DNA of 64,000 nt, taken from positions 48,796,001 to 48,860,000 of the forward strand of contig NC_087251.1 in NCBI RefSeq assembly GCF_037042905.1. Direction: 5' to 3'. Made by a program: the position numbers and the translations under genes. Shown here one piece after another: positions 8,724-63,913 of this stretch. The notes under the pieces were generated by a model. It saw only the letters and a list, made by a program, of their open reading frames with translations. It ran no database searches and was not told the DNA's origin. This stretch comes from Lytechinus pictus (taxonomy: Eukaryota). The stretch's first letter is position 1. The number at the start of each line of letters is the position of its first letter.

Positions 8724-9421
8724 TGTGTTTTTGTTTTACAGACGAAAGATACTATGAACATATAAATGTATCAACATAATCTTCACGATTAATTCCAATC
8801 CATAATATCTGTAGGAATCTATATTAGACTCGTATCAAAAGAATTTTTTTCTGTTATTGCAGATTTGCTGTCAACACATTAACACCTCCGCCCGGATGTT
8901 CTAAGCGTCATTAACGGCTAGACAATGACATCGCACATGGGATCTTCCTAAAAAGTGTAGCAATTTCCTGGCCAAATTCCAACTATTGAGAAGGGGTTTT
9001 GGATTTCCGCTCCCGCCTATAGCTGAAACGAATCCCTCGAGTGTGGCACTGTCAGATTGCCGAATAATTCATGCAACCCAACCATATTTAGCAAGGACGG
9101 GACTAACAGGAGACATGATTAAAAACGTCATCTTTGTCAATTTTGTAACGTTCGTTTTCTAGTAAACATGTAAAGGGTATAATTATTATGGCGAAATTCA
9201 ACCCATTTTAGATAATCGGCCGCGACAAATTTGTTTGCACCATTTTGTCGACAAGGTCGAAATTTTTGCTCAAGAAACAAATCAAGAACCTACAAGCCAA
9301 CGTGAAAATCACGGCAACATTGAACCGTGCTTCTGGCTTACCGATGAAAGCATGATGGTGACAACGAAATAGTATATCCGAGAGTACATCAACTCAGATG
9401 TAGGTTTCTGGACCAATCACA

Positions 9422-10666
9422 ATGAGATTGTGGTTGAAATTAAGAATATGGCGATCAGCATTTGGACGATATATCTACCTTGGATTACTAGGATTTATCA
9501 TTATGTTTGGCATGAGGAGGACTGGTGGAGATCGAAACCAGAGGAGACCATGGAGATCAATTACTCCTGTTGGAGAAGATTCAGGACTATTCATGAAAAT
9601 GGCGTCAGTTAATGCCATCATAGTCGAAAGAGAGAATCGCAGACAAAGACCCTTTGTACATCATAAAGTTGAGGACAGTGATCATACAGGATTGCTACGT
9701 GATGCAGCAAGTATGCCTAGATTAATTAGAGGCCGGGAAGATTTGAAAAGGGACAAAACTCCTTTTGATGATGCATACAACAAGGGTACATACTTGTTGG
9801 AACCAACCGATTCTCATACCTACACCCAGTTGAACACCCCGCGTAATATTTGCTTTGACCATCGGGGAATGCCCCGACGGGTGCCCATGATTATATTTGT
9901 GACATCTGCTCTGGGTAATCTGAAAAGAAGAGACCACGTCCGTGTGACGTACGGCAACAGCCAAGCCTGGGAAGTATCAGATGAACCCCTCGTCAGGACA
10001 GTGTTCATGTTGGGAGCAACTGCCGATCCGGTCCTGCAAGCCAAGATCAGCGCCGAGGCTCGTATCTATGGCGATATTGTCCAAGAAGATTTCATTGATA
10101 GCTACTTAAACCTGACAAGGAAGACTGTCATGGGTTTGAAATGGGTGACGGAGCATTGTCGACACGCCAAGTTTGCCATGAAAATCGACGACGATACGAT
10201 GCTCAACAAGGCTCGTATCCTGGCGTTCATCCTTAGGGCGCCCTCTCATGGAGTCGTCATCGGGAACCTGAACCTTGACATGCCGGTTGTCCGAAGTAGG
10301 GTCGGGGACTGGGGGAAGTACCACATCTCTGAGGATTTTTACCCTGCTTCGACGTACCCACCGTACCTCTCGGGTACAGCGTTCATCATGTCCACAGACC
10401 TGGTGGAGGCGACGTTTCGTACCGCTTTGTCCACACCCCTGTTCCCCTGGGAGGACGTCTTCATGGGCATGTGTTGGAAAAAGATTGGGGTCAGTCTCAT
10501 GCACGATTACCATTTTATGTGTACTTCGAACACGGAGGAGTGTTACGGTGACAAGGAGTGGCCCAAGTATACCGTCTTTGTTAATTTACCTGCAGAGTAT
10601 ATGGTCCGGGTCTGGGTCGAAAGTACTGTCTACGCCGAAAAGCAGCTGCCAGACATTCGGAAATAA
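9422..10666 (+). CDS. Beta-1,3-galactosyltransferase-like glycosyltransferase (CAZy GT31), single coding exon, 414 aa, type II membrane protein
   Basis: Intact ORF. N-terminal TM segment (YIYLGLLGFIIMFGM) and stem, then GT31 motifs: FVTSALGNLKRRDHVRVTYG, VFMLG, EARIYGDIVQEDFIDSYLNLTRKT, FAMKIDDD (DxD), YPPYLSG, EDVFMGMC. Exact B3GALT/B3GNT orthology cannot be assigned from sequence alone. Confidence 0.95.
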   Translation: MRLWLKLRIWRSAFGRYIYLGLLGFIIMFGMRRTGGDRNQRRPWRSITPVGEDSGLFMKMASVNAIIVERENRRQRPFVHHKVEDSDHTGLLRDAASMPRLIRGREDLKRDKTPFDDAYNKGTYLLEPTDSHTYTQLNTPRNICFDHRGMPRRVPMIIFVTSALGNLKRRDHVRVTYGNSQAWEVSDEPLVRTVFMLGATADPVLQAKISAEARIYGDIVQEDFIDSYLNLTRKTVMGLKWVTEHCRHAKFAMKIDDDTMLNKARILAFILRAPSHGVVIGNLNLDMPVVRSRVGDWGKYHISEDFYPASTYPPYLSGTAFIMSTDLVEATFRTALSTPLFPWEDVFMGMCWKKIGVSLMHDYHFMCTSNTEECYGDKEWPKYTVFVNLPAEYMVRVWVESTVYAEKQLPDIRK

Positions 10667-21360: not shown

Positions 21361-23842
21361 AAATTCCCCTCTGGTATCACCTGTCAAAAAAAAGGAAAGC
21401 TAAAATGCCATGGTTTACGAATACGATTCTACGATCCATAAATGCCCGAAATAAGCTATACAAAGCATTCCTAAAGAACCCTTCTATTGAAAACAAAAAT
21501 AAATATAAAACTTATAGAAATAGACTAACGAATATAATTCGAGCTGCTCGCAAATCTTTTTATTCCGAGAAACTCATTAGAGTTAAGTCAAATATGAAAT
21601 CCACATGGGAGATTATAAATTATTTAATAGGAAAAAAATCAAAAACATTACCTATAAAGATAATTTCACGGTTCATGATGTTGCAATAAATTCGGAAGAT
21701 GTAGCTGATACTTTTAGTTCATTTTTTGTTAACATAGGACCCTCATTGGCAAACCAACTTTACAGACTTGATCAAAATTATACAAAGTTTTTTCCCACAC
21801 CCACAGATTATTCGTTATTCTTTAAACCCACAAATTTTCAGGAAATAATTGAAATAACTAAACATCTCAAATCCAGCAAATATCAAGGGCATGATAGAAT
21901 AAGCACTTTCCTTCTTAAACACATCATACATTATATTGCATCTCCTTTGAGTCACATTTTTAATCTATCGATCAGCACCGGCCAATGTCCTGATTCCCTA
22001 AAAATTGCAAAGGTAAATCCTGTTTTTAAAAAAGACAATCCACATGAAATAACTAATCACAGGCCAATATTTATTCTTCCCAGCATATCCAAAATATTAG
22101 AAAAAATTATTTACAGCAGACTTTACACGTTCCTAGATGCATTTCATTTTCTAAATTCAAACCAATATGGATTCAGGAAAGGACATTCAACATACCAGGC
22201 TTTAGTACATATATACGATAAAATTACAAATGCAATGGCTAAGAAAGAACATATAATAGGAGTATTTATGGACCTAAGCAAAGCCTTTGATACTCTCGAC
22301 CACCAAATTTTACTTAAAAAGTTAGAGGAATTGCATTATTATGGTTTGAGAGTTATTTATCAGTTAGAAAACAATATGTAATTCACAATAATATTTCTTC
22401 TAACCTTCAATCAATAATGTGTGGAGTTCCACAAGGGTCAATATTTGGCCCCTTGCTTTTCTTAATATATATTAATGATTTGACTTATGTAACACCTTTG
22501 TTATCATTTGTATTATTTGCAGATGACACAAACATTTTTTGCTCACATAATAGTTTAGAAACTTTAGTAGATACAATAATTCGTGAATTGCCAAAACTAT
22601 CTATATGGTTTAAGTGTAATAAGCTCTCACTTTAGATAAAACAAACTTTATGTATTTCAAACATACAAATGCACATATTGCTGAATTTCCTTACAATATA
22701 ATCATAGACAATACTCCTCTGAAAAGAAAAAAGGATACACAATTTTTAGGTGTTACAATAGATGAAAATTTAACTTGGAACGAACCCATGCGTTGCATAT
22801 CCACTAGTATCTCGAGAAACGTCGGTGTACTTTACAAAATGAAAAACATTATTCCACAAACTACCCTCGTTACACTATATAATTCATCAATTTTTACCTT
22901 ATATATCGTACTGCAATATAGTTTGGGCAACCTGTGCAAAAACTGAAATTAATACAATATATTTATTACAGAATAAAGTTATTCGAATTTGTATACGGAT
23001 TCACAGTATTTAGCACACACAGACCCATTATTCCATAAACTAAAGACTCTAACAGTATTTGTCATAGATTCACTTCAAAGTTTACTGCTGATGTTCAAGT
23101 ACATAAATAACATGCTTCCATCTTCATTTCACAATTTTTATACAATGTACACATTTATTCATTCATACCCTACACGGAACTCTTCAAATTTTCACTTAAC
23201 CCAAAATTGCTCATTGCACAGAGATGCATTAGACATCACGGTCCAGATTTATGGAACTCTACCAGTCTATCAAAAAATGTTCATCTCTTTACTCATTTAA
23301 GGCGAATGTTAAATCCATGTTATTATCAGAATATTTAAAGTAAGTTTTCTGTGTCAGTATTTCAGTTAATCATTAAATCACTTTTCCTGTGATTTAATCA
23401 TCACCAAACACTCTCCCATGACCATCATCATCATCATCATCATCAACTCCATCTTCATCATGGCCTTCATTTTCACCATTATCACCATCATCCTCATTCA
23501 TCTCCATCTTCATCTTTATAAAATTATGAACAAAATAACATTTCCATTATGCTTTATAAATGTATGTATTAATTTAATGAGTTTTATTCCGGGGTTGTCA
23601 TTTTTTTCAAGCAATCTGCTTATAATGACTATCCTTCTCCTGCAAACTGTAAATGTTACATTTTCTTTGTTGGTAGTAGATCATATTTGTTTAGAATGAC
23701 TCTTTTATTTTGTATTTTTTTCTTTATGATTAATACCAAAATCAATTACTGATATATTATGTTTGTTACGCGATGAAAATTGTATTGTATATCATTGTTA
23801 TGAATGCTGAAGAAAAAATAAATCAAATCAAATCAAATCAAA
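21361..23842 (+). mobile_element. 5'-truncated, frameshifted CR1-group LINE (ORF2 reverse transcriptase, 3' UTR, (AATCA)n tail)
   Basis: Consecutive ORF fragments carry PWFT, LSHIFNLSI..G..PDSLKIAKV.PVFKK, QYGFR, DLSKAFD, GVPQGS.FGPLLFLIYINDL, LFADD and AHTDPLF. Multiple frameshifts. Ends in AATAAATCAAATCAAATCAAATCAAA. Confidence 0.92.
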
Positions 23843-24928: not shown

Positions 24929-25010
<82 letters not shown>

Positions 25011-26191
25011 TCATGAGAAAGAGACACATATCTCAACCTCACCAACAATGCGAGCGCGAAGCGCGAGCTGAAATTTTTTTGTATGACATGAAAACAGGAA
25101 AAATGTACCTGTTTAGGTTTGCTTGTAGTAACTCATGAGGAGCATAGATACATGTATCTCACTAGAGAGCGAGCTAAAATTTCTTTATATTCTGACGTGA
25201 AAGCTTGATATTCTAAGCACTTTTGGTACCAATGATTAAGATGGGTATCTAGAAGAACAATAGATGCGAGCGCAAAGCGTCAGCTGAAAATTTTAATATT
25301 TCGATCTGGACAAAAAGACAATTTAATGGACGCTTTTAATAAAGAACAAGATATACCAGTATATCCAACAAATGATTATTGCAAATCGAAGCGGGAGTTC
25401 TTTTGAGGTATAGAACTGAAAACGGGACATTCTATTCACCTATTTAATCATGAAAAGTATGGGGTTTTGGTACAGAAATGATGCGAGCGCGAAGCGCGAG
25501 CTGAAAATTTTTATATTCCGATCTGAAAAGCAGACATTTTGAGCACGATTTTAGATCAAAATCGAGTTGGTATCTTTTAATCTCGCTTGCTGGTTTCAGT
25601 GTAGCATTACAATCTTATTTTAATTTTAGTTGCACATGCGGAATTATTGGGAGGGGGGCAACACGATATGTTCCCCCCAAATATTTTCATTGGTGGGGCT
25701 ATTACTCTAATAGCTATATGGTCATTCCTTAGACGATTTATCTTGCCACCCTTTTACTCCCGTTTGTTTTTCCACCCTTTTGAATTAATTGATTTATTAA
25801 AATTAATTCATTCACCACTGGTGGGATGGAACACCCTATCAACAAAAGTTGTTTTTCGTTGGGGTCCTTTTATGTCATGTGTTAAAAAATATCATATACA
25901 TAAACAATTCATTATTTTTCATCTTGAACTTCCACCCATCTGTTTAATAGTCCTGAAAAAGAATGTTTTCATTTAATAACAATATACACAAATTGCGAGG
26001 GAAACAAACTGATTGATGGCATACTATAATCATCACTATAATCATCATGATCAAACTTTTCATTTTTTCATCATTATTATTATAATTTTTCTACCCTAAA
26101 TTATTGGGGGGATGATAATACAGGCCATCCCCCCCACTTGAAATATTGGGGGGATATATCCCCCCCATCCCCCCCGTGATCGACACCCATG
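24503..26191. mobile_element. Non-autonomous hAT-type element containing a nested hAT element
   Basis: TIRs CATGGGTGTCGATCA / TGATCGACACCCATG. Perfect 8-bp TSD TATATCGG at 24495-24502 and 26192-26199. Confidence 0.9.
24800..25699 (-). mobile_element. Inverted copy of the 269-1142 hAT element, missing one terminus; contains (TA)n
   Basis: Reverse-complement match to 269-1142 throughout (e.g. GCAAATCGAAGCGGGAGTTCTTTTGA, CATGAAAAGTATGGGGTTTTG). Begins CAGGGGCATCGATCC. Confidence 0.9.
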
Positions 26192-28854: not shown

Positions 28855-29154
28855 TTAATCTCTGCAAACGACAAGGGGATGCGAAATGATTCTGAAGACT
28901 GTCTTACGGAACAAAGGTTGGGATACTGAGTATGCGATGGGGTTGAGGAAACTGTTGGCATAAGTCAGCCAGGCTATGAAGATGTACCAGGTGGATGTGA
29001 AAAACCCCTGATGAAGAAGGGTTGGATTGATGGTAAAGATAACAGCCACGATGCTACTTGGTATCCAGGCTACGAAGAAGGAAATGATGATGAAGAGGAG
29101 CGTTCGAGTGGCTTTCCACATTTCACCCGTCGACTCCTGGCGAGATGTCTTGCC
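28855..29154 (-). CDS. Class A GPCR #1, coding exon 2 (TM6-TM7, helix 8); spliced protein about 393 aa
   Basis: Phase-0 acceptor CAG|GGC. Motifs KATRTL, FFVAWIP, WLTYANSFLNPIAY, FRKT, then TAA. A second in-frame CAG 15 nt downstream is a possible alternative acceptor. Confidence 0.9.
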   Translation of the reverse strand, partial: GKTSRQESTGEMWKATRTLLFIIISFFVAWIPSSIVAVIFTINPTLLHQGFFTSTWYIFIAWLTYANSFLNPIAYSVSQPLFRKTVFRIISHPLVVCRD

Positions 29155-29795
29155 CTGTTTAGGTTTATAAAAAGATAAAATTCGACCGTTCAATGGAAAG
29201 AAAATTAAAATATGTATAAATAAACACTTAATGCTTTTGTCGTTTGGCAAATTTGTTAAGGAGTCCAGATGATTTAAAAATCGTTAATTTGCAGTTCGAC
29301 AGAATTTTAACCCCCGAGATCGAAATTTTCTGTGAGCGTTTTCCGTGATTTGGTTTTATTTACCTTATAAAAATAAAAACAATGTAGATAAACAGTGTAC
29401 AAAAATGAAGAATAATTGCGAATACTTACAAGTTATAAAAACTTTTAACGATACGGATGGATCACTCACTTCAGAGCCATTGTAATGGCTCTGTTCTTCC
29501 TAAAGGTCGAGTGTAATTGGTGAGCCCTGATATGAGCACCAGCCATTGTTACTTTATTGATGATGTTTCCTGTCGTGGTCCTCTTATAGCAGTAAACCAT
29601 TCTTTTTCTTGTGATCCCTGACAGGATCCATTACATTAATTTTGTTCATGTCAGTAAGGGCGCGACAGTGGCTATGTTGTAAGGGTGCGCTCTTAATGCT
29701 TGTGAATAGTATTATTACCCTTGGAGTATTGTAATTCACATTGACAAGAAAACTTATAATATATAGTTTCGAAAACACAAACATGTCATACCTAC

Positions 29796-30677
29796 CTCAG
29801 TTTTCTTTCTAGATGGATTTCTTTGTTTTCCAGTTGTCTCGAGTGTTTCTTGCAATGGTTTCCTTCCCTTTTCTCCATCTGTAATGTTTGGGAAGTCTAC
29901 CCGACTAGCAACAGAGACGATGCCGACATCAAAAGTCGCCGAATCTTCCAGGACACTCGACCTGGGATTGAATTTCGCATTGACATTTCTTCCCTTGAGG
30001 GTCTGTTTGATCTTTGCGTAGATCCTCAAGTAGAGAGTTGAAACGACAATTAGGGGCAGAAACACCTGAAGAAAGATGGGCAAGATGGCAGGAATTAGTC
30101 GGTAAGAATAACCCGGAACGCAGTGACGGGTGTTGACGGCATCGACCACGAAGTCCCAGGCGGTTGCGTACAACAGCCAGAACCCGAGTCCGACGGTCCA
30201 AGCGATACTGTTCAAGATCACAGCCCTGCGTTTGCTTCTGGAGATGTAATGGTTGATCGGGTCGAATGTCGCTTGGTACCGATCCACGCAGATAACGACC
30301 ATACCGAGGTTCGATACCGTTGTCGAAGCGTTCCTGAGGCCAGTGTACACCCTACAAAAGTCCGTTGAGAATGGGAAATAACCGATGATTGAGTGTGCGA
30401 CGGTGACGGCTAGGAGTATGCCAGCTAGAAGATCGGAGATGACGAGATTGATGATGAAGTAGTTGTTGTAGGTGCGGAGTTTCTTCTCAATGGCAAAGGC
30501 AACTAAGCTGATGACATTGGCCGAGACCATCAAGAAATTGATCGTTACCGCTATTGCAATCTTTGAGATATTCGGATTTGACTTCCTTGTGATAGGTTCC
30601 ATCGTTGTTGTAGCATTAAATGTTGATATATTACTTTTCATGGTGCCCACTTCATTTAAGATTCCCGTGATATTCAT
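29796..30677 (-). CDS. Class A GPCR #1 (muscarinic/histamine H3-like), coding exon 1 (TM1-TM5 and ICL3), 294 codons
   Basis: N-terminal N-glycosylation sequons, KKLRTYNNYFIINLVISDLL, TM3 Cys and CVDRY, ECL2 Cys, TM5 FLP..Y. Phase-0 donor GAG|GTAGGT, with the exon ending at 29796. Confidence 0.92.
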
Positions 30678-31611
30678 GGTGCAGTATCGATATCAAGCTT
30701 ACAATGCATTAATAAAACACGCACAACATCAAATCGGTACTTTAAAAAATAGATTATTATCAAAGAAAATATTGAATTCTTGCAGTTTAAAAAATGCGAG
30801 TAGTTGTATGAATATGCTTGTTTCCGAAGTTAAATGCCTGGATAATTTGAGGACTGATGAGTATAGTACGAGAAAGATAAAAGTCGTCGAATTCATCTTT
30901 TCAATTTAGTACTAATGAAAATAATCATAGGGTCGATCAGGACTCTCACGTCCCCGGGGCTCCTCCCGTGCCATCACTATATGACACAAATCATCATGAA
31001 GCGCGTCCTCTCCCGTAAGTTTCTTTTAGGTTATCATAAATAGTTAATTGATTTTCATTTTTTTTATTTACTTCCATCGGAAGAAGGAGAAAGAACGAGT
31101 TCAATCAATAATTAATAAAGGCAAGTAAACTTATTTTCGATTATTAACTTCCACTGAAAGAAGGGGAAAGGCCGAATTGAATTAACTCAAATTATTGAGG
31201 GCAAATATTTGGTACTCTTTCCAATCCGCGCCATTTTTTTTATTACAGATTTATTAACAATGGTACAAATTCAGATACTATTATGCAGTGGTATAAACAC
31301 AATGTCATGTCGTCAATTTCGCGATGGAGCGGGCGCCAGCGGCCGGCTTTCTTCAAATTATACACTTTTAAACGAAAAGAAAAATGTTATATACTGCCTA
31401 TATTTTTATTTATCATTCATTATACAGTTACATAAAACGCTGAGCTTTTATTTTCACAATAGCTTGTAATTATGACCTTGCATCAAGTATAATGCTCAAC
31501 TGCTTATATCAGTTATAACCTTTCAACGTTTTGCTCGTTCTTATTGTTGTGGTTTTTTTCTTCGAATTTATTCATTGAATAGCAAATCATTATTTCAGCA
31601 ATTCATGAAGG

Positions 31612-31613
<2 letters not shown>

Positions 31614-31696
<83 letters not shown>

Positions 31697-31715
31697 TATG
31701 TGTGTGTGTGTGTGT
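31614..31715. repeat. (TA)n(TG)n microsatellite
   Basis: Directly visible. Similar (TA)n tracts occur at about 34840-34910 and 54740-54945. Confidence 0.95.
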
Positions 31716-34700
31716 TTTTTTTTTTTATTGATTTCATCAACATAAAATTTAATTTTTAAAAATGAATTGTATCTTTTCCAATATTATTCATCTTTATATA
31801 CAACAATGTATGAAATATTATCGATAGATATGACTCAATGAAAGCAATTATAAATATGACAACGCACTACACACAAACAAACACACCCACATATACCCAA
31901 CCCGCCCGCTGTCCTCCCTCCCGCAATGCTTTCATTATTTTGTTAAAAATATTGATCTTACATCCTCATCACACGAAACATGCTAGATGGGACGAACGAA
32001 AGGCGGTCAAATGAGATCAGACTGAACAGTCATTGGTTATTCAAAACTGTACAAATATTGTGCTCGATTACCTCGAATACCGAATAAGTGTGACGGGGGC
32101 TTTATGTGTTTGAATTTGAATTTCCAATAAATTTCTTAGTTTTGGTGAAAAAAGATGTGTTACAAAGGCCATCATGAATGAATATTTTGTCAAATTTACA
32201 CTGGAATAGGTTTTCTTAGCTTTGAACGTCGTTTCTCCGATTTCATATTTTCGGTTGCCTTTGTTAGGTTTGTTATGTTTATAAGGACAAAACAAATGAG
32301 TCACGCTAAAATTGACCTGACTAGTGCAAATGGTATCATCCTGAATAACAATAAACTGCACGTAGATACATGTACATACATTAATAAGAAATACATCGGA
32401 AATATTAATCGATTTTACTATCCTCGGCTCAAAGTCCCTTATAATAAAATTACGTCACTGGTGTAAGACAACCTTTTACTTGTTTTATGCTTCACTGTAA
32501 TTTATTTATAACAGGAAATTTATATACAAAATAAGCTCCCTGGAAGATAAATTTCTCATTTCATTTTTTAAGAACATCTCTAACGTTAATGAATGCATTT
32601 CTCTTTTGCGAACAAGCTATTGAATAATGAAAATTCGATTTTGTTTCAATCGACCAACATTCTTCACTCACTCATTCTGTTTATAGTAGTCACGTACGAT
32701 GCTAACGATTTATCTGCAAAACAACAGGCATATTAAGAGCAATATTATTAAAAACTTTATCTTTATTTATTTTATTTTATTCGGAATGTCATTGTCCAGA
32801 TCTACTTAACAAAATTTATACAAAAGCTGCAAATATACACTGTATACAATGGTTTTGTTCCCTCTGTATTTGTGATCCCTAATTAATGAAAGTTAGCCAT
32901 TAGTTTAAACAACATAATATTCTTAAAATACCTGGTATATAGGTCATGGAACAACAGTTTTCACTTCTGCCACCACGTGTTTGCATGTACATGTGGCATA
33001 TATGTGGAAAAAAATACATTTTTTATTAAAAAAAGTAAAAATAATACGTTCAAAACCATCAGGAATATCGCTAGAGCGTATATACTTGGATGCACGCAAA
33101 CCTCTTGATGATGCAAGTGGTGCGGTGTGCCGATCTACTACACGCCCTTCAAACGCACACCCACACACACTAGGAAATGTCGTTTCCCGTGAACTTTAAA
33201 ATTCATCCTGTGTATGTGAAAATCCACTTGCTAAATGTGGACGCCTCCTCCGGTGTGTGAAATGTCACTCAATAATCGTGGACCTCACTCACTACCCTTG
33301 CAACGTATTTTTTTCGCTTTTGCCAAATGCATGTCTATATGCATTCGTCAGCACTGTTACCGCTGAACCGTGGACAGTCCACGGTTCGAGGGTGTCCTCG
33401 AATCTAATGTGTTTCAGATTATATAGGGTCCACGTTGCTGTTGGTAAATATATGACAGTAAATCCCCTTCCCAATAAAACACACACATAATTTAAATTCT
33501 ATTACAGTGAATCATCAGCACTACAGTGAAATGTTTAAGGATGTTTTATCATTTATTGCACCAACCCCCTCCCTTTATTTATATATCTTTGTAGCGGCTA
33601 AGAATTCACGATGACAAGATTCATCAACAAAAATATTGGGCAAATCAAAAATGTCTCATAGGCATATAGAGATGATTTAGTGAAAATACTTTAGATTCAT
33701 AATTAAAAAAAACACCATACGTCAGAATAGAACATTTAAAAACACCACCCCAATAATTTCAAAGATGCATATTTAACCCTGATTAATCTTCAAATACTTG
33801 TCATTTTAGGAGGTTGCATTTTTCATGAACCTTACATTGGGGTCTCATTCAGCCAATCTAATTTCATTAATTTAGATAATTGTCAACTCTTTTATAATTT
33901 CATCAAAGGGCATTTTCACACGTGAATCTTGAATCATCATTGTAATGATGATTGCTATTGTAATCTTGACTTTGATTAGCGTTCGTAATTCTCATCATGT
34001 TCTAGTTTGGTTTCACGCGTGTTAAATATTCGTCATTAGCCTTATTGTTCACAGGAATCATTCAAATTACGATTCTTTTACCGTGTAAAAGGGCGGTAAC
34101 ACTGAAGAAAACATTTTCAGCGAGTGAAAGCTCCACCTGGGAGTTCCACAGGGAGCACTTTTATCTTTTCTTTCATGAAACATTGTTTTGTACAATGTAT
34201 CACATGCTTATACCTCGTTCCCAAATGTACTATGATCCGTTACGAACGCCACTATTGTTTTTACGTTGCTGATTGCTAAAAAAAGATTAACCTTTCAAAC
34301 ACTTCCAAAAGTTTTCTAGGATCGATACGATTACCACGACCAATCTGATACGATCTGATTCCTTCACTACGATTATTTCACGATTAAGACCACGGTTTCA
34401 ATCTTGACGTGTTTGTGACAGAGTAAACTCGGTCAAAATGTAAGATCAGTGATCCTCCTACCGATAACACCACACACTACACTCTTAAATAGGATTGGTC
34501 AAGTAACCAATCTCTTGGTGAAACAGATCGAAATTCTGTTAGATTCTTACAAGCAAGTTTGTTGAATTTTACCATTTTTGTCAGCGGACACAATGTTCAC
34601 CAACACACTGGCTATATTAAACATTCCTTTTAAAGATTGTTCCATTTAAAACTGCTGCGGTGCATTCCTTTCTGGCATTAGCCATACTTTGAAGGAACCT

Positions 34701-34838
34701 GTCACAATGATAATTCTGGACATTTGCTAGATAGTATTAATGTAAATGAAAAGAAAGTAAAATAATGCCGAAAATCTATATAGAACAAACAACGCCAGCT
34801 GAACAAATTAATATATAAGGTACATTAAAGAAAAGTGC

Positions 34839-34877
<39 letters not shown>

Positions 34878-34959
34878 CATTTATATATATAATATATATA
34901 TATATATATGTATTTACGGTTACAGAGTTATTTGTCATAAGTAAACTTTATACGTCCAC

Positions 34960-35161
34960 CTCAAAATGACCTTTGACCTTACCATGTGACCTGCGACTGC
35001 ACTGTAACATGCAGGTCCCTTAAGTACATCTACAATCCAAGTTTGGTTGGAAAAAGACTTAATGTTGCAAAGTTATGTGTCATAATGTTTGTGACGGACG
35101 TACGTCGGACGACATTTAGATCCCTTAGTCTCGCCTTCACGTCTGGTGGGCGAGACAAAAA
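34960..35161 (+). mobile_element. 3' end of a Helentron/HINE-like (rolling-circle) element
   Basis: TGACCTTTGACC core, short GACG repeats, terminal stem-loop GTCTCGCC...GGCGAGAC followed by an A-run. Classification is from general architecture only. Confidence 0.55.
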
Positions 35162-36724
35162 GTGCCTTAATTCGGCATGTTAAAATGGAAAGGCTAGATT
35201 CATTTTTTTCTATATATCTATGTACAAATGAAAACATTCAGTCCATTTGTCAAATTTCCTTCCAATTCAAATGACTAAATTTGTTTTCTTTTCAGGTTTT
35301 TCCTTGAAATTTATATCCACTTAACAGGACCAGTATCACAAAAACCCCGGGTATAGGGAGAATGATATCCTATAAGGTCCTGGGTACATATTGATATTTG
35401 GGACCTTTCGCAATCCTCACGGATTAGGGTCCCCTAACACAAAAGTTAACGCTTAATCATACACTTGATTTTTAAGATTGATTGTGCATTATAGTCAATA
35501 GAATCAAACGTAGAAAACTGCTCTACAATCAATGCTAAGCTTTGTGTTACAGGGGGGTTACAGGCCCTACAGATCTGATTTTCGTGTGCAAAATCCTCTT
35601 CCGCGACACCCGCACCATACATGCATGTATATTACGACTGATGGCTGGAGATATTCGAAATGCAGACCTAAAATAGATTATGAAATGGATAAGAAAGTGG
35701 TTTTTCAAACAAATCGAGTACATATTGAGTGAGGAAAAACTTACTGAATGAAGGCTTAGATATAGATCATTACAGTCCATCGAATCGATATTACATTTAA
35801 TGTGGATTATTGGTGTATCACTGGCAATTGATTTCATGGATCAGATGAACCTCTCCAGCCGAACATTTCGCGTGAGTTGATATGTGCACACCGTATGCAA
35901 TACGTTTGAACTCGTTTCTTTTTGTTTCTTTTGTTTCTTTTGTTAGCTTCTTCTACACAAACGATATGCCTCTCGCACACGATGTAATGGGCATTATGTT
36001 TTACTTTCCCCAGAAATGGGGGATTAGATTCAAATTCCGGGGAGACCACTTCCATTGATGAGTGGATACCAGGCACGACCATGGGGTTTCGAAAAGTACC
36101 CTAAACAAGGGAAGTAATTTTTTTCCAGATTATGAAAATGCATCTCTTAACAAGAATTTGGCTTGTGAAACCCTACAAGTATTGGATATATATCCCTTTT
36201 TGTCAGCATTTTAAACCTCGTTTTGACACCCTTATAACGTTACTTGGGCCTATACGTAACGTACCTGCCCACTCTGTCCCCTTTTACGCGTGGTCGCTCC
36301 TGGTATCCACTAATCAATGGAAGTGGGCCCCCCGGGCGGCCTCTTGAGCTCTGGGAGGAGTCAAATGTGGCTTTGGAAAGTTGTCCTCAATCGGATATAT
36401 CGCTGTTACCATAGTAGCAACCAGAATTTTGCACACGAAACGCATATTGAATGTTTCCGTCGCAGATGCGAAACGAAAAAAAAATCTAATGTCACACAAT
36501 TTGCATTGCAAGACAGAGTTTTACGACCATGATGACGGGTCTAAAAAGTCTCTTCCAAAATCATCTAACGTCGTTAATAAGCGTGCGCGTCCTCAAACGA
36601 AAGGTCGGGATTGACAACTTAAAAGTGACAGGCCCCTTGTGTGCCTAAAATAACTGACAAAACGTTTTACATGTGTCCAACAACAGATGGTTGTATTAAT
36701 TGATGGCGAATGGAGTGTGTCGCT

Positions 36725-37030
36725 TCAGTGGCAGTACTTCTGCGGTCTGCAGATCAAGTCCGATACGGTACGGCGGAACAGGGTTTGGGATGCTGCGTAA
36801 CATATTGGATTGAAGAAGCTATTCGCGTAGCGTAACCACACGAAGAATTGACGCACCGCGGCTGGGAACGCGCGCACCAGAAGAAGTGCAGGGTCGATTG
36901 CAAAGAGGAGATAGATGATGGCGTTTGGAAGCCAGGCGATGATGAAGGATATGATGATGTAGGACAAGGTCCGGTTGGCTTTCATCATCTCGTTCTTGGA
37001 CTCGCGGTCGGCCCCTGTCTTGGTCGTCCC
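36725..37030 (-). CDS. Class A GPCR #2, coding exon 2; spliced protein about 386 aa
   Basis: Phase-0 acceptor CAG|GGG. Motifs KANRTL, FIIAWLP, WLRYANSFFNPICY, FRRT, then TGA. Intron position and phase match paralog #1. Confidence 0.9.
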   Translation of the reverse strand, partial: GTTKTGADRESKNEMMKANRTLSYIIISFIIAWLPNAIIYLLFAIDPALLLVRAFPAAVRQFFVWLRYANSFFNPICYAASQTLFRRTVSDLICRPQKYCH

Positions 37031-37844
37031 CTGTAGGCGATTAATCAAATTAAGAGCAGAATTATTGTTTAATTATGTTTTTGTTTTTTATTATAAGACC
37101 GGCAAATAAGCATTTTGAGTTCAACATTACAAAAATATCAAGGTATGACATCTTGGCAAAATATTCAATTATTAGAACGTCCACTGACAACAGCAAAATG
37201 ATACGAACTCAAGTTTATGTGTATTCTATTATATGTACCACTACCATTCTATTATATGTACCACTACAAGCAACAAGACAAGGGGCAATGTCACATTTAT
37301 TAGGGGCATTTGTACAACAGAAGTTTTATGAACACAGTCATCATAGTGTAGACGCAAGTTTGCTGTAATTTATAATTGTTATAATTGTCATTTGTTACAA
37401 AACATGAGGGAGCGAAGCTCAAGATCACTGATAAGATTTTTTTCTTAGCCTTTTTTCTTGAAGGTATACCGCTGTTGTCGACAAGGGATGTGTTAATGTT
37501 CCTTGTCTTCTTTCTTTGGGTTTGTTAGTTTTGCTTGTTTGCTTTTCTTCCTTTTCTCAACTTATTTCTTCCCTTTTTTTTCAATCGTTATTCCCGCCCC
37601 ACATGCAATGAGAATCGAATTGTGTTTTCATGTTCCATTCTTGTTTAGAAATTTGTATGACTTCCCTAACTGCACATGTTATCACGGGCTACCTAAAGAT
37701 AAATGGGGGCTTAGTAAAATTGTCATATTTCACACTTATTGCCGTAGGAGTGACAACCCTTCCTCTTTCTTTATCTCTCTCTTTCTCTTAAAAACACGTT
37801 TTGTCGAAACAAGTCGAGCAGACATTAAAACACATAGGCCTTAC

Positions 37845-38699
37845 CTTTTCTGCTTCGTGCCTGCCTTTGAAAGGCACTACGTGTTCGTCTGACTTCAACC
37901 GAGTGTTGTTGCCGCTGCTGCTGTTGGATGACTCCACGGAACCTTCTCCTATCGTCACGTCCTGCATCCCATCCTCGAACTTCCGACTGACACTTTTTCC
38001 ACCAATCGTGGCCTTTATCTTGATATAGATTCTGACATAGAGCAAGGAGATGATCACCAGAGGAATAAAGAAGGTGATGACGTTTTGCATCAAGTTTGGG
38101 ATAGGGTATCTGACGTAGGCCGCAAAACAGTGCCGAGACGAATCTACATCCACTATGAAGTCCCAGGCCGTAGAGTAAAAGAGCCAGAAGACAAGACCAA
38201 CCACCCAGGTTAAAACGTTCATCACCATAGCCTTCCGTTTACTCCTGGAGATGAAGTGGTTGATAGGATCGTAGGTTGCTCGATGACGGTCGATGCAGAT
38301 GACGACGACCTCCAGGATGGAGACAAAGAAGAGCCCCTGGCGACAACCCAGGTAGACCTTGCAGAATCCTTGAGAGAAGGGAAAGTACCTGAGGAAGGTG
38401 TGGGCGACGCCAATGATCTGGCTGATGCCTATCAGGAGATCAACCACCACCAGATTGATGATAAAGTAGTTGTTGTAGGTTCGTAAACGTCGTTCGACGA
38501 CGAAAGCGGCCAAGCTGAGGAGGTTGGTCACAGAGATCAGGATTACGACCAGGATGCCAAGGACTAATCCTTGAATATCGACGCTCATGGAGGAACTTAC
38601 TGGGGAGCCATCGTCTTCTGTAGCGATGTCCGTGGCGTTGTCGAAACCGCCCTCTTCGTATAAAAATGTGTACGTATCATTTGCTTCATTGTTTTTCAT
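37845..38699 (-). CDS. Class A GPCR #2 (tandem paralog of #1), coding exon 1, 285 codons
   Basis: Motifs RRLRTYNNYFIINLVVVDLL and CIDRH; ATYDPINHFISRSKRKA is near-identical to the paralog. Phase-0 donor AAG|GTAAGG, with the exon ending at 37845. Confidence 0.92.
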
Positions 38700-41222
38700 A
38701 TTGTACTTTCTGCTGTTTTGTCACGATGACTAGTGTCGTTCTATCCTCTTCTGAAATAGGTAGCAGTAAAAAGTGAATTTGGTAATGTACTAAAACTCCG
38801 GAGGTGTAGGTGACGTGGTTGTACTTGTTTTAAAAAGCGAGAGTGGAGTCGTAGTGTTGATGTCCATTATTTATACTTTTTGTAAATCAATGAATCCATC
38901 ATCTGAGGTTCAGATTTTGTTGTGAACTCCCGACTTTAACCGAATTTGACTAATGGGAAACTTTGGATCAACTCTTTCCAGTTGTGCTTTCATTTCAATG
39001 AGAGCTGTTTACACTCCTCATTTTTATGTATTTTCTAGGATTTATGGGAATAATACAAACGAACGTACAGCTCTCTGGTAGAATCGAATTTTCCATTCAT
39101 TTTATTGAGCCATATACGATCAAAAAGTAAATACTGAAATAAAAAATGATTAAGGGTAGGCCTAAAAGAGCAAAGTATAAATAAAAACAGCATAACAATC
39201 AGTTCCTCCAAGATTATGATATTTGTTAGATTATGCCCTACTTTCATTCAGACAAATAAACGAAGTCAATTAATTTTCCATTTGGATTTGAGGACTTTAA
39301 AAGGTTGACTTCCAACAAAGAAACCTTTCTGGCAAAATCATCGAAGGTTATTCTTTTGTCTGTATAAAAGGGCACCACTTTGCCAGGGGAGTTCTGGAAG
39401 GTGATACCAGCATTGTATAAAAAATACTTTTTCATATGCCGATAGTTCTTCGACCTGTATTTTTGTTATTCGTCATCCTCTATATGTTCAATACTATACT
39501 GAAGGTCATACTTCAACGAGTCATTCCGATTCAATGTGAACTAGAAGTCGAGATTTAATTCATTAGCATTGTGGGTTTTTTTTTATTCAAAACATATCTT
39601 TTATATACCATTGCTTTGATGATGACGTTAATAAAAAAAAGAAAATTTGAGCACGGAATTACCGTGGCCCTTTTATGTCTAGTTTCCATGTAGTGCAGAA
39701 ATCGTCTAATCGAAAAATATTTTTAAAATATTTCCTGCTGTGAAGAGAGACAGCCTCGTTCTCATTAATCTTTCTATTCTATGTATAATCTATCTCCCCA
39801 CCTATATCTGTCTATATTTTTAACTATCTATCTCTCTCGGTCTCCATCTATCTATTTATCTTTCTTTCTTTCTCTTTCAATCTCCCATTTCCCTCTTCCT
39901 CCCACCCCTCCCTCTCTTTCTTTCTCCCTATTTCTATCTCTCTCTCACACACACTTACACTCTCTCAAGGTCCTCCAATGCTCTTTTCTTTTCCGGCTCT
40001 CTTGCTTAAAGGTCAAGTCCACTCTAGCAGCAAATTGATTTGAATAAAAAGACAAGGAAAGAAAAAAAAAATTTAACCCACAGATTTCATTAAATTTAAC
40101 AAGAAATTAATGCCATTCTTTTAACTTTGCTTTTATTTCACGCCAACGCCGTAATAAATTTGATCAGAAGTAATCATACCCACAGGAAAATTGTAGCTTG
40201 GTAAACTTTTCATAAAAACGAGATGGTAACTTTTTATTGGTACTTGACATGTTTTCCTACAGGTACAGATTGGTTCAAATAACAACTGTTGGTTAAAACA
40301 AATGTCATGCGAAATGAATTTTGATTTTTAACCAACAGTATTATAGGTAGGATCATACTTTAACCAATTTGAACATAACATCTGGTTGAAACAAAAATTG
40401 CATAAGAAATAAACTTGGATTTTGTAACCAACAGTTGGTAGATTTTTATTTTAATCAATTTTGGGGTTGGTTAAACAAAAATTCTGAGTATACAGAATCA
40501 CACTAGATGTATATTGTATTAATTTTATCATGTATTTACATCTTTATCAGAAATATTTGAAATATGCTTTGATAATGAGACGGGAACATCCACCGCTCAA
40601 CAGAGGTAACACATTTTTTTATTCATTCATTTATTTATGTATTTATTTATTTAAAAATCTTTATACAGGATAATTATGTTCAGATAATATATACATGTAC
40701 AATGTTATTCAACATGGTTGACATGAAGAAATATCCAACAAAAACAATAAATTCAGATAAAGTAGAAACAGACTGAGTGATATAGGTATTAACAAACATA
40801 GATATTAACAAACAAAAATACATGTACACTGGGTGATAACTACTAAATTGAAGATTGAAAATATAAGTTTGCATAGAAATATATAGAATGGAGAGCGGAG
40901 AAATTAAGAGAAGTGTGTTTTCGTGTATTTCCTTTTAAAACTATCAATTGAATTTGCATTTTGGAGTTCCGAAATGAAACTATTCCGTATACATTTCCTC
41001 CTGCATATTCTAAACTATTCTTAAAACTTATTTATAGGATGAGTACGACATCGGCAATTTTTCTGCCGTCGATTGTGTCTCTTCCAAGACAGTCTATCTA
41101 ATTTTCCTACAACCAAGGGCCCGTAACACAAAGCTGAGCAATGATCGGAGAACATATATCTACGACTGATTGCATTGACAACAATTTAAATCATGACCTT
41201 TGTGATACGGGGACCGAGTGGA

Positions 41223-57230: not shown

Positions 57231-57759
57231 TAACCCAGGGAGCTCCTGCCCGCGCAGCGGGCGGGAGCCCAGGGGCTTACCGTGTATTTTACCATACTCA
57301 AGGGACTAGGGTGATTTATGGTCTAAATATTTCTCCAAATGAATTGTGAAAACAGAAATTATGCACTTACCACGATTATATGGATGAAGGTCTAACGATT
57401 GGCAGTTTCCTGATATCTGGGCACAAACTGGAACCTCAAAAAAACGAAAAGTTCTCTCCTTCTACCCCAGTCTCGATCGGCCATTTTGTTACAATTCATA
57501 ACAAAAATGGCCGATCGAGACGGGGGTAGAAGGAGAGAACTTTTCGTTTTTTGAGGTTCCAGTCTGTGCCCAGATGTCAGGAAACTGCCACTCGTTAGAC
57601 CTTCATCCATATAATCGTGGTAAGTGCATAATTTATGTTTTCACAATTCATTTGGAGAAATATTTAGACCATAAATCACCCTAGTCCCGTGAGTATGGTC
57701 AAATACACGGTAAGCTCCTGGGCTCCCGCCCGCTGTGCGGGCGGGAGTTCCCTGGGTTA
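57231..57759. mobile_element. 529-bp near-perfect palindromic MULE-type MITE
   Basis: ~260-bp inverted arms from TAACCCAGGG to CCCTGGGTTA. 9-bp TSD TATCAGTAT at 57222-57230 and 57760-57768. Confidence 0.93.
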
Positions 57760-62639: not shown

Positions 62640-62772
62640 GTGCGCATGTTATGAACAAATCTCGTGCTACAGTCACACGAAACTGACTCCAAACTGACTG
62701 CTTATATACCATTAGAAATAATGTGAAATGTTTGACTGGTCTGTAGTCGATTTTTTTTTGGTGTGCCTTTAA

Positions 62773-63356
62773 AGGGATGGTCCGGGCTGAAAGTATTTAT
62801 AGCTTAATAAATAGAGTAGAATTCTCTGAGCAAAATGCCGAAAATTTCATCAAAATCGGATAACAAATAACAAAGTTATTGAATTTTAAAGTTTAGCAAT
62901 ATTTTGTGGAAACAGTCGTCATGAATATTCATTAGGTGGGCTGATGATGTCACATCCCCACTTGTTCTTTTGTATTTTATTATATGAAATTAGGTTTATT
63001 CAATTTTTTTCCTCCAAGAACTAGAAAAATTGGATTGACAACTGATTTAGTGCATTAGATATTTATTGCTGCAACTTATTTCATTGTAAGGGAGACATAT
63101 TATTCACACAAGTATGAAATAAAGAAAAAATTATGATTTTATGTAATAACATAAGAAAACGGAAAGTGGAGATGTGACATCATCAGCCCACCTAATGAAT
63201 ATTCATGACGACTGTTTTCACAAGATATTGCTAAACTGTAAACTTCAATAACTTTATTTATTTGTCATCCGATTTTGATGAAATTTTTTGGCATTTTGCT
63301 CAGTGAAGTCTACTCTATGTATTAAGATATAAATATTTTCAGCCCGGACCATCCCT
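62773..63356. mobile_element. Kolobok-type palindromic MITE in SDE2 intron 4
   Basis: TTAA|AGGGATGGTCCGGGCTGAAA ... TTTCAGCCCGGACCATCCCT|TTAA, with ~190-bp inverted arms. Confidence 0.9.
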
Positions 63357-63913
63357 TTAAGCATTATGGACCAAACAGATACTGATATTAGAAGTAAACA
63401 TGAGAGCATTTTTATAAGCTACCAAAATCCTGATTATCCGAGAGAAAATTAGTCAGTAAAAAATCACTGCAAAATTCTTCATGATATTTTCCAATGTTCA
63501 TAAGTAAGAGCTTACTATAGATGATAGATCATTCAAGTATTTGGCAGGCAGATCATATATTCTTCATTTTGTAAGAGGTGCAAAATCCAAAATTTCTGGG
63601 ATATTTTTTCACCACTGTAAATTGACTGGCCTACCCTTCATACTTTAACATTTGCAATTAAATTTACAACATGGAAAGTTCCTCTTAAAAAAAAAGAATT
63701 GTAATTTGAAGGGGGAAAAAGTGTACTAATTGGAAGTAATGTATATAGCCTATGATAATATGATAACAATGATGTGCACTATGAACAAATATTTTAAAAA
63801 AAATGTGGCAGATATGTGAGATTTTGATTGAAAATCTGAAAATACAATGTGGTGTGTGATAATGTAAATTATCGCAATACACTTGAAATTTACATAGACT
63901 GAAGTCACCTTAA

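Follow-up and report, generated by a model that had tools for sequence, protein, structure and literature searches.

Two genes encoding G protein-coupled receptors (GPCRs) of class A lie between positions 28855 and 38699 of the window, by which we mean the whole 64,000-nucleotide stretch of the sea urchin Lytechinus pictus analysed here (contig NC_087251.1, positions 48,796,001 to 48,860,000). Both are encoded by the minus strand, to which all coordinates given for them below refer, and each consists of two coding exons separated by a single phase-0 GT-AG intron in the third intracellular loop (ICL3). In gene 1, exon 1 (29796..30677; 294 codons; 7tm_1, E 8e-28) encodes the N-terminus with four N-glycosylation sequons, transmembrane helices (TM) 1 to 5 and the start of ICL3, and exon 2 (28855..29154) encodes TM6, TM7, helix 8 and the stop; the predicted intron between them (29155..29795) has the same junction as the annotated proteins P0004, P0022 and P0005, and the spliced product of 393 amino acids is identical to the L. 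pictus protein P0004 at 387 of 393 positions. Gene 2 has the same layout, with exon 1 at 37845..38699 (285 codons; N-terminus, TM1 to TM5 and the start of ICL3; 7tm_1, E 3e-27), the intron at 37031..37844 and exon 2 at 36725..37030 (TM6, TM7, helix 8 and the stop), and its product of 386 amino acids matches the L. pictus protein P0034 at 381 of 386 positions. An initial annotation had described two intact open reading frames; there are indeed no frameshifts or stops, but these "frames" are spliced two-exon genes.

The gene 2 intron is skipped in contig 23 of run X2, which joins position 37031 to 37847 with one letter between, and is spanned by run X12. The X2 contig derives from a related organism, with 45 differences across exon 1 of gene 2, and is most simply read, if our guess that the run is RNA is right, as the spliced mRNA of a gene 2 orthologue. 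Its match breaks off at position 38713, next to AG dinucleotides, leaving 22 letters unmatched, and a contig of run X3 continues to 38750, hinting at a candidate upstream non-coding exon of gene 2 near 38710-38750. For gene 1, exon 1 matches the first 294 residues of the database protein P0023, a model of the same gene that ends in an acidic low-complexity tail instead of helix 8; the tail maps to 23397-23519 on the minus strand and is probably a gene-prediction error, as reading through would restore the helix 8 of the family. A tblastn search of the window with four family proteins returned only genes 1 and 2 and no third set of GPCR exons. The two products share 168 residues over 380 aligned positions (44% identity), and a recent duplication of the pair was rejected, since the two gene regions share only a 344-base coding match at 67% identity and no non-coding match.

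Both receptors carry arginine at position 3.32 (GPCR numbering), where aminergic receptors have aspartate. The codons are AGG at 30333..30335 in gene 1 (residue 115) and CGC at 38340..38342 in gene 2 (residue 120). Counting back from R3.50 places the Arg at 3.32 in each case, and phmmer aligns TM3 of gene 1, and TM3 of a 99% identical database copy of gene 2, with the muscarinic receptor M1 without gaps, so that Arg stands opposite Asp3.32. An AlphaFold model of the database copy of gene 1 (mean predicted local distance difference test score 76, predicted template modelling score 0.71) shows seven transmembrane helices and helix 8, with TM3 as one unbroken helix (105-138); judged from the alignment, the Arg3.32 side chain would point into the pocket. 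The initial annotation had placed Arg at this position by counting alone, and that placement is borne out. It had also described the scaffold as muscarinic/H3-like, and here only the first half stands: the ICL1 motif, KAxRTL, W7.40/Y7.43, NPxxY and DRY/DRH are all present, but the best superpositions of the model are with M4 and M3 (Z 31.2; root-mean-square deviation 2.2 Å over 277 residues; about 22-25% identity). Muscarinic receptors lead the matches to solved structures, and H3 lies near the foot of the 60 matches listed; an H3-like identity was therefore set aside.

To place the pair, three homology searches and one profile search of the full library were combined into a working set of 247 proteins. 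In an overview tree of 183 rows, from which 22 named rows were dropped (short, duplicate or unrelated) and in which the 45 best-scoring Asp3.32 rows were retained, genes 1 and 2 fall in a clade of 89 rows in which every named member comes from a sea urchin (Lytechinus, Strongylocentrotus or Diadema). Position 3.32 in these rows, which include near-identical copies and are not independent of one another, is Arg in 25, Phe in 19, Gly in 12, Asn in 8, Ser in 8, Gln in 7, Ala in 4, Ile in 2, Lys in 2, and Thr and Tyr in one each; it is never Asp. Sixteen family rows stop after TM5, as would fit an ICL3 intron common to the family. A sister clade of 32 rows, its named members likewise sea urchins, has Gln3.32 in 28; among its members (for example P0086, P0099, P0101 and P0121) Cys3.25 and Cys45.50 are each present in only 7 of 32, so that most seem to have lost the near-universal TM3-ECL2 (second extracellular loop) disulfide while retaining an acid at 7.36 and three arginines in the pocket. 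Outside both clades are non-Asp3.32 receptors from starfish, sea cucumbers and crinoids. As a separate observation, 13 of 22 outer rows (P0125, P0130, P0133, P0134, P0153, P0156, P0158, P0167, P0182, P0196, P0210, P0211 and P0217; those named are from starfish, brittle star and sea cucumber) have His at both 3.33 and 3.37, and some of them also carry Asp3.32 or His7.43. This i, i+4 pair of histidines lies at pocket positions and could form a metal site.

A second tree, of 54 chosen rows with the pocket columns removed, separates a non-Asp echinoderm clade of 42 rows from the muscarinic acetylcholine receptors (mAChRs) with support of 100/99; its outgroup was chosen, and the origin of the clade within the muscarinic/histamine group is not placed by it. 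Muscarinic M1-M5 and histamine H1/H3/H4 receptors make up one orthogroup, OG30 (Goulty et al. 2023, PMC10244343), which is the likely source of the family. The first-branching lineage of the non-Asp clade is basic at 3.32 (Lys in a starfish receptor, Arg in two others), and the echinoid subfamily (100/99) splits into seven lineages in unresolved order, of which five, two of them from Diadema, carry Arg3.32. Because five of seven basal lineages have Arg, the residue shared by the pair is most simply inherited, and we infer that it was ancestral for the echinoid subfamily; an Arg specific to the pair, or convergent in it, is not favoured. The presence of Arg in two paralogues therefore makes one piece of evidence rather than two, which weakens the earlier argument that its retention in the pair reflects selection, although the residue is kept among orthologues. 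The proposed lineage-specific subfamily is real as a sea-urchin radiation, but its unit is a large family in which the pair does not stand out. A tree constrained to unite the groups of gene 1 and gene 2 gave p-AU 0.124 (approximately unbiased test), so that a sister relation is neither rejected nor shown.

Within the family, the residue at 3.32 varies among paralogues and is kept among orthologues. Parsimony gives 15 changes at the site in 55 rows, ranking it 48 of 206 TM sites, and among young S. purpuratus copies, short branches suffice for flips from Arg to Gln or back; Lytechinus, Strongylocentrotus and two Diadema lineages all retain Arg. Tandem copies and genus-specific clusters are present in the family, the window itself holding two copies, and eight S. 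purpuratus rows, counterparts of both genes included, appear to share one contig, which suggests conserved linkage of the two counterparts.

By their core both receptors are class A GPCRs (7tm_1, 141 bits where the cut-off is 30.5), with seven helices, D2.50, DRY/H, W6.48, P5.50 and NPxxY; in the 55-row set there is no variation at D2.50, W4.57, P5.50, W6.48, N7.45, N7.49 and Y7.53, and hardly any at S3.39, F6.44 and Y5.58. Trp7.40 with Tyr7.43 is a signature of aminergic receptors, and both genes have it. The amine-binding residues themselves are missing. Asp3.32 is replaced, and at the positions of the muscarinic cage (Tyr3.33/Tyr6.51/Tyr7.39/Asn6.52) gene 1 has N/S/A/S and gene 2 Q/N/V/A; among 42 mAChR-like rows, chosen by D3.32, Y3.33 and N6.52, Y6.51 is present in 41 and Y7.39 in 36. 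Histamine H1/H3/H4 receptors have Asp3.32, Tyr3.33 and Tyr6.51, with Glu5.46 in H3/H4, and here gene 1/gene 2 have R3.32, N/Q3.33, S/N6.51 and Q/T5.46. With all five muscarinic residues missing, the pair are very probably not acetylcholine or histamine receptors, as the initial annotation had proposed. Its warning that automatic names mislead is also justified: the two genes are automatically labelled as receptors for acetylcholine or serotonin, and members of a single 90% cluster are named M3-like, 5-HT1A-like and 5-HT1B-like. A look-up in the ESM Atlas returned only generic 7tm_1 clusters by features, and muscarinic or adrenergic clusters by structure.

Amines or choline-like cations might still be detected through some other acidic site. 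In zebrafish clade III trace amine-associated receptors (TAARs), 85 of 87 lack Asp3.32 and were expected to be blind to amines, and the members tested detect them, in that case through Asp5.42 (PMC4695389); the retained W7.40 and Y7.43 and the acids in ECL2 of the urchin receptors could be read in the same sense. Yet 5.42/5.43 are Pro/Ile in gene 1 and Gln/Asn in gene 2, no row of the 89 has an acid at either site, Arg3.32 would repel a cation, and the tyrosine cage is lost, so that we regard continued amine binding as very unlikely.

The charge of the pocket points the other way. We defined the pocket as 28 positions from general class A knowledge, 26 of them set before any charge was counted and two ECL2 sites added later, and scored the 66 full-length family rows (23 of the 89 were excluded for more than three missing sites). 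Net pocket charge is positive in 57, neutral in 6 and negative in 3, and in the sister clade it is positive in 25 of 26 full rows, with R2.60 in 23, R5.46 in 28 and R7.39 in 26 of its 32 members; among 84 Asp3.32 receptors it is positive in none, and only 10 have any basic pocket residue. Of the 43 family rows in which 3.32 is neither Arg nor Lys, 37 are basic at some other pocket site. At the 16 deep sites only, a basic residue occurs in 44 of 66 family rows against 2 of 84 Asp3.32 rows. The 28 sites are free of acids in both window receptors, and so they are in 19 of the 23 rows with Arg or Lys at 3.32. Gene 2 has three arginines in the pocket, at 3.32, 7.35 (codon 36851..36853, residue 345) and 7.42 (codon 36830..36832, residue 352). 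The initial annotation had singled out R7.42 and DRH as its special traits; both are present, but DRH is usual in the family, occurring in 82 of 89 rows, and the two co-orthologues in S. purpuratus have Leu at 7.42. The cation at 7.35, which had been overlooked, is better kept, being Arg or Lys in all ten rows of the gene 2 group that include TM7.

Odorant receptors (ORs) have pockets that are variable among paralogues and conserved among orthologues, and the family has the same pattern: variability is higher in its pocket, with an entropy of 2.28 bits, than in the rest of the extracellular half, with 1.86 bits (p 0.008), whereas the 42 mAChR-like rows, with the columns used for their selection excluded, show the reverse (0.88 versus 1.92 bits, p 3e-5). 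In four Lytechinus-Strongylocentrotus pairs picked from the tree, the pocket is kept at 93 of 103 sites and other extracellular sites at 209 of 267 (p 0.007). Such variability, with 11 residue types at 3.32 across the family, might also be expected of receptors that are ligand-free or decaying, their pockets freed from selection and Arg3.32 a neutral leftover. That orthologue pairs keep pocket sites better than neighbouring ones, that Arg is held across Lytechinus, Strongylocentrotus and two Diadema lineages, and that frames and activation motifs are intact, with gene 2 seen spliced in the X2 contig, makes this explanation highly improbable, the least likely of those considered here.

The explanation we put forward, at a confidence somewhat short of even for the statement as a whole, is that genes 1 and 2 are intact, old paralogues of a muscarinic-related sea-urchin family with mostly net-positive pockets, whose members have as ligands small molecules with a carboxylate, sulfonate or sulfate group and together make up a chemosensory repertoire. 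Its parts stand on somewhat firmer ground: that the ligand carries an anion is probable, as a cationic pocket across the family favours such ligands, and an outward-facing sensory role is slightly favoured. Arg3.32 would serve as counter-ion to the ligand anion in a pocket free of acids, assisted in gene 2 by Arg7.35 and Arg7.42, and other members would reach the same polarity through basic residues at 3.33, 5.46, 45.52, 6.55, 7.35, 7.39 or 7.42. Ligand binding would then drive the usual W6.48/F6.44/NPxxY switch. In muscarinic receptors Tyr5.62 and the TM6 motif direct coupling to Gq, and since both are as in M1, Gq coupling is the likely output.

Several observations weigh against this explanation, beginning with those that concern charge. 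As kin share residues, we also counted changes on the tree: in the family, changes to or from basic residues compare with those to or from acidic ones as 49:15 within the pocket and as 56:35 in the rest of the extracellular half (p 0.056), in the sister clade 18:10 and 29:31 (p 0.18), and only the pooled comparison (70:26 versus 86:66) reaches p 0.010. The bias toward positive charge is real in raw counts, whose rows are not independent, and moderate once kinship is allowed for. The pocket of gene 1 contains just one basic residue, and ECL2 of the window receptors carries two to three acids, one of them nearly invariant, which might neutralise Arg3.32. Basic residues at 3.32 occur in peptide receptors too. 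In NTSR1, R149 (Arg3.32) is tied to Glu2.61 and to F7.42 and restrains activation, and R3.32M raises agonist affinity (PMC7840143); in GnRH1R, K121 (Lys3.32) is paired with Asp2.61, and the two bond a ligand oxygen (PMC7576152). Arg3.32 of the urchin receptors could similarly be a hydrogen-bond donor or a structural residue in a receptor for neutral polar or peptide ligands, the charge of the pocket being incidental; the Arg/Gln flips among young paralogues and the borderline outcome of the tree-aware test would agree with this. Because the basic 3.32 of NTSR1 and GnRH1R is paired with an acid at 2.61, the acid-free pocket of the window receptors matters here: 2.61 is Val in both, and no row of the 89 has an acid at that site. 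With the three arginines of gene 2 and the Arg2.60, Arg5.46 and Arg7.39 kept in the sister clade set against it as well, we judge a neutral or peptide ligand rather unlikely, and continue to prefer one that carries an anion.

Other observations weigh against the sensory part. The orthologue pairs of the window genes taken alone keep the pocket at 51 of 56 sites and other sites at 113 of 142 (p 0.061). Both genes lack the OR-like motif and the single-exon layout of sea-urchin chemoreceptor candidates. In the rows found, gene 1 is matched by a single S. purpuratus counterpart, which keeps 27 of 28 pocket sites, and such constancy also fits an endogenous ligand. At least the old and stable members such as gene 1 might thus serve internal or immune signalling through an anion-bearing metabolite, lipid acid, sulfated steroid or peptide C-terminus. 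The placement of both genes in basal lineages, outside the young clusters, favours such a role, and R3.32 of NTSR1 has been suggested to sense the carboxylate of its agonist (PMC7840143). Dozens of paralogues with diverging pockets exceed the usual need for endogenous ligands, however, and we hold this explanation to be unlikely, retaining a chemosensory repertoire as the preferred one. Responses of sea urchins to amino acids and algal extracts (PMC10381433) make ligands of this kind plausible and show nothing beyond that.

On a longer time scale, the basic 3.32 of the first-branching non-Asp lineage and of five of the seven basal echinoid lineages leads us to a more speculative and doubtful scenario. 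An early reversal from Asp to Arg or Lys at 3.32 in echinoderms may have converted an amine receptor of muscarinic type to one for anions, founding an undescribed chemosensory family mirroring the TAARs. The positive anchor would then have moved (among 3.32, 3.33, 5.46, 45.52, 7.35, 7.39 and 7.42) while the paralogues, well over 100 in number, diverged to detect seawater acids, sulfonates and sulfated metabolites.

Elsewhere, the window contains a long single open reading frame with a galactosyltransferase domain (9404-10666, plus strand; PF01762, E 1e-39) and a reverse-transcriptase fragment, likely of a decayed long interspersed nuclear element (21587-22381, plus strand; RVT_1, E 1e-15). High-copy repeats directly downstream of gene 2 (35500-36610), two long self-inverted elements (57231-57759 and 62769-63360) and a dispersed inverted pair (298-1034 with 24974-25702) are likely non-autonomous transposons.

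A muscarinic scaffold with inverted pocket charge yields a prediction of the ligand that is narrow and can be tested (an acid against its ester, Arg against Ala), and if it is true, the family would be a natural case of an amine pocket turned to the opposite polarity, complementing the TAARs, in which the acid only moved. Dozens of sea-urchin genes named as muscarinic, serotonin, adrenergic, dopamine or trace-amine receptors are also mislabelled in consequence, distorting counts of neurotransmitter receptors in echinoderm genomes as well as expression studies. A description of the family or its pocket was not found in a literature search that covered subscription journals thinly (term look-ups in PMC13372822 and PMC12588293 gave 0 matches), nor was a ligand of any echinoderm chemoreceptor found in the literature searched.

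Expanded GPCRs of sea urchins are known as surreal-GPCRs and have been proposed as chemoreceptors (PMC7042368, PMC5442662, PMC10855541, PMC11886862), and the OR-like receptors of echinoderms are mostly single-exon genes with the motif LxxPxYxxxxxLxxxD (PMC7042368, PMC5442662, PMC10855541). Like these, the urchin family consists of echinoid-expanded rhodopsin-type receptors in tandem arrays; unlike them, and compared by description only, the window genes have two coding exons, and Tyr and Asn stand in place of the Pro and Tyr of the motif. The sequences of surreal groups A-F (Raible 2006) were not found in the searched supplements of PMC7042368 and PMC5442662, and the family may already be one of those groups. 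Of the 22 entries listed in a sea-cucumber table with a muscarinic- or histamine-like receptor as best hit, 2 are flagged as candidates by an OR-like hidden Markov model, and two more that are flagged "no" nevertheless occur in the table for that model.

Among well-characterised receptors, muscarinic M1-M5 give the best matches to solved structures in both sequence and fold, and have in common with the window genes the ICL1 motif, W4.57, W6.48, W7.40, Y7.43, the motif at the start of TM6 and Y5.62. They differ in the Asp3.32 that is Arg here, in the lost Tyr3.33, Tyr6.51, Asn6.52 and Tyr7.39, in a pocket that is fixed in muscarinic receptors and hypervariable among urchin paralogues, and in the ICL3, which in the window genes is short and holds an intron. 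NTSR1 and GnRH1R resemble the pair in having a basic 3.32 in a class A pocket; their basic residue is paired with Glu or Asp2.61 and their ligands are peptides, whereas the window genes have Val2.61 on a muscarinic-like scaffold. The nearest working analogy is provided by the clade III TAARs of teleosts (Li et al. 2015, PMC4695389), which are likewise aminergic-derived, have lost Asp3.32 and have expanded by duplication. They arose from a different ancestor, and their ligands and olfactory expression have been demonstrated, while for the urchin family both ligand class and sensory role are predictions; in the TAARs the acid moved to 5.42 and amines are still bound, whereas the urchin pocket is basic and has no replacement acid.

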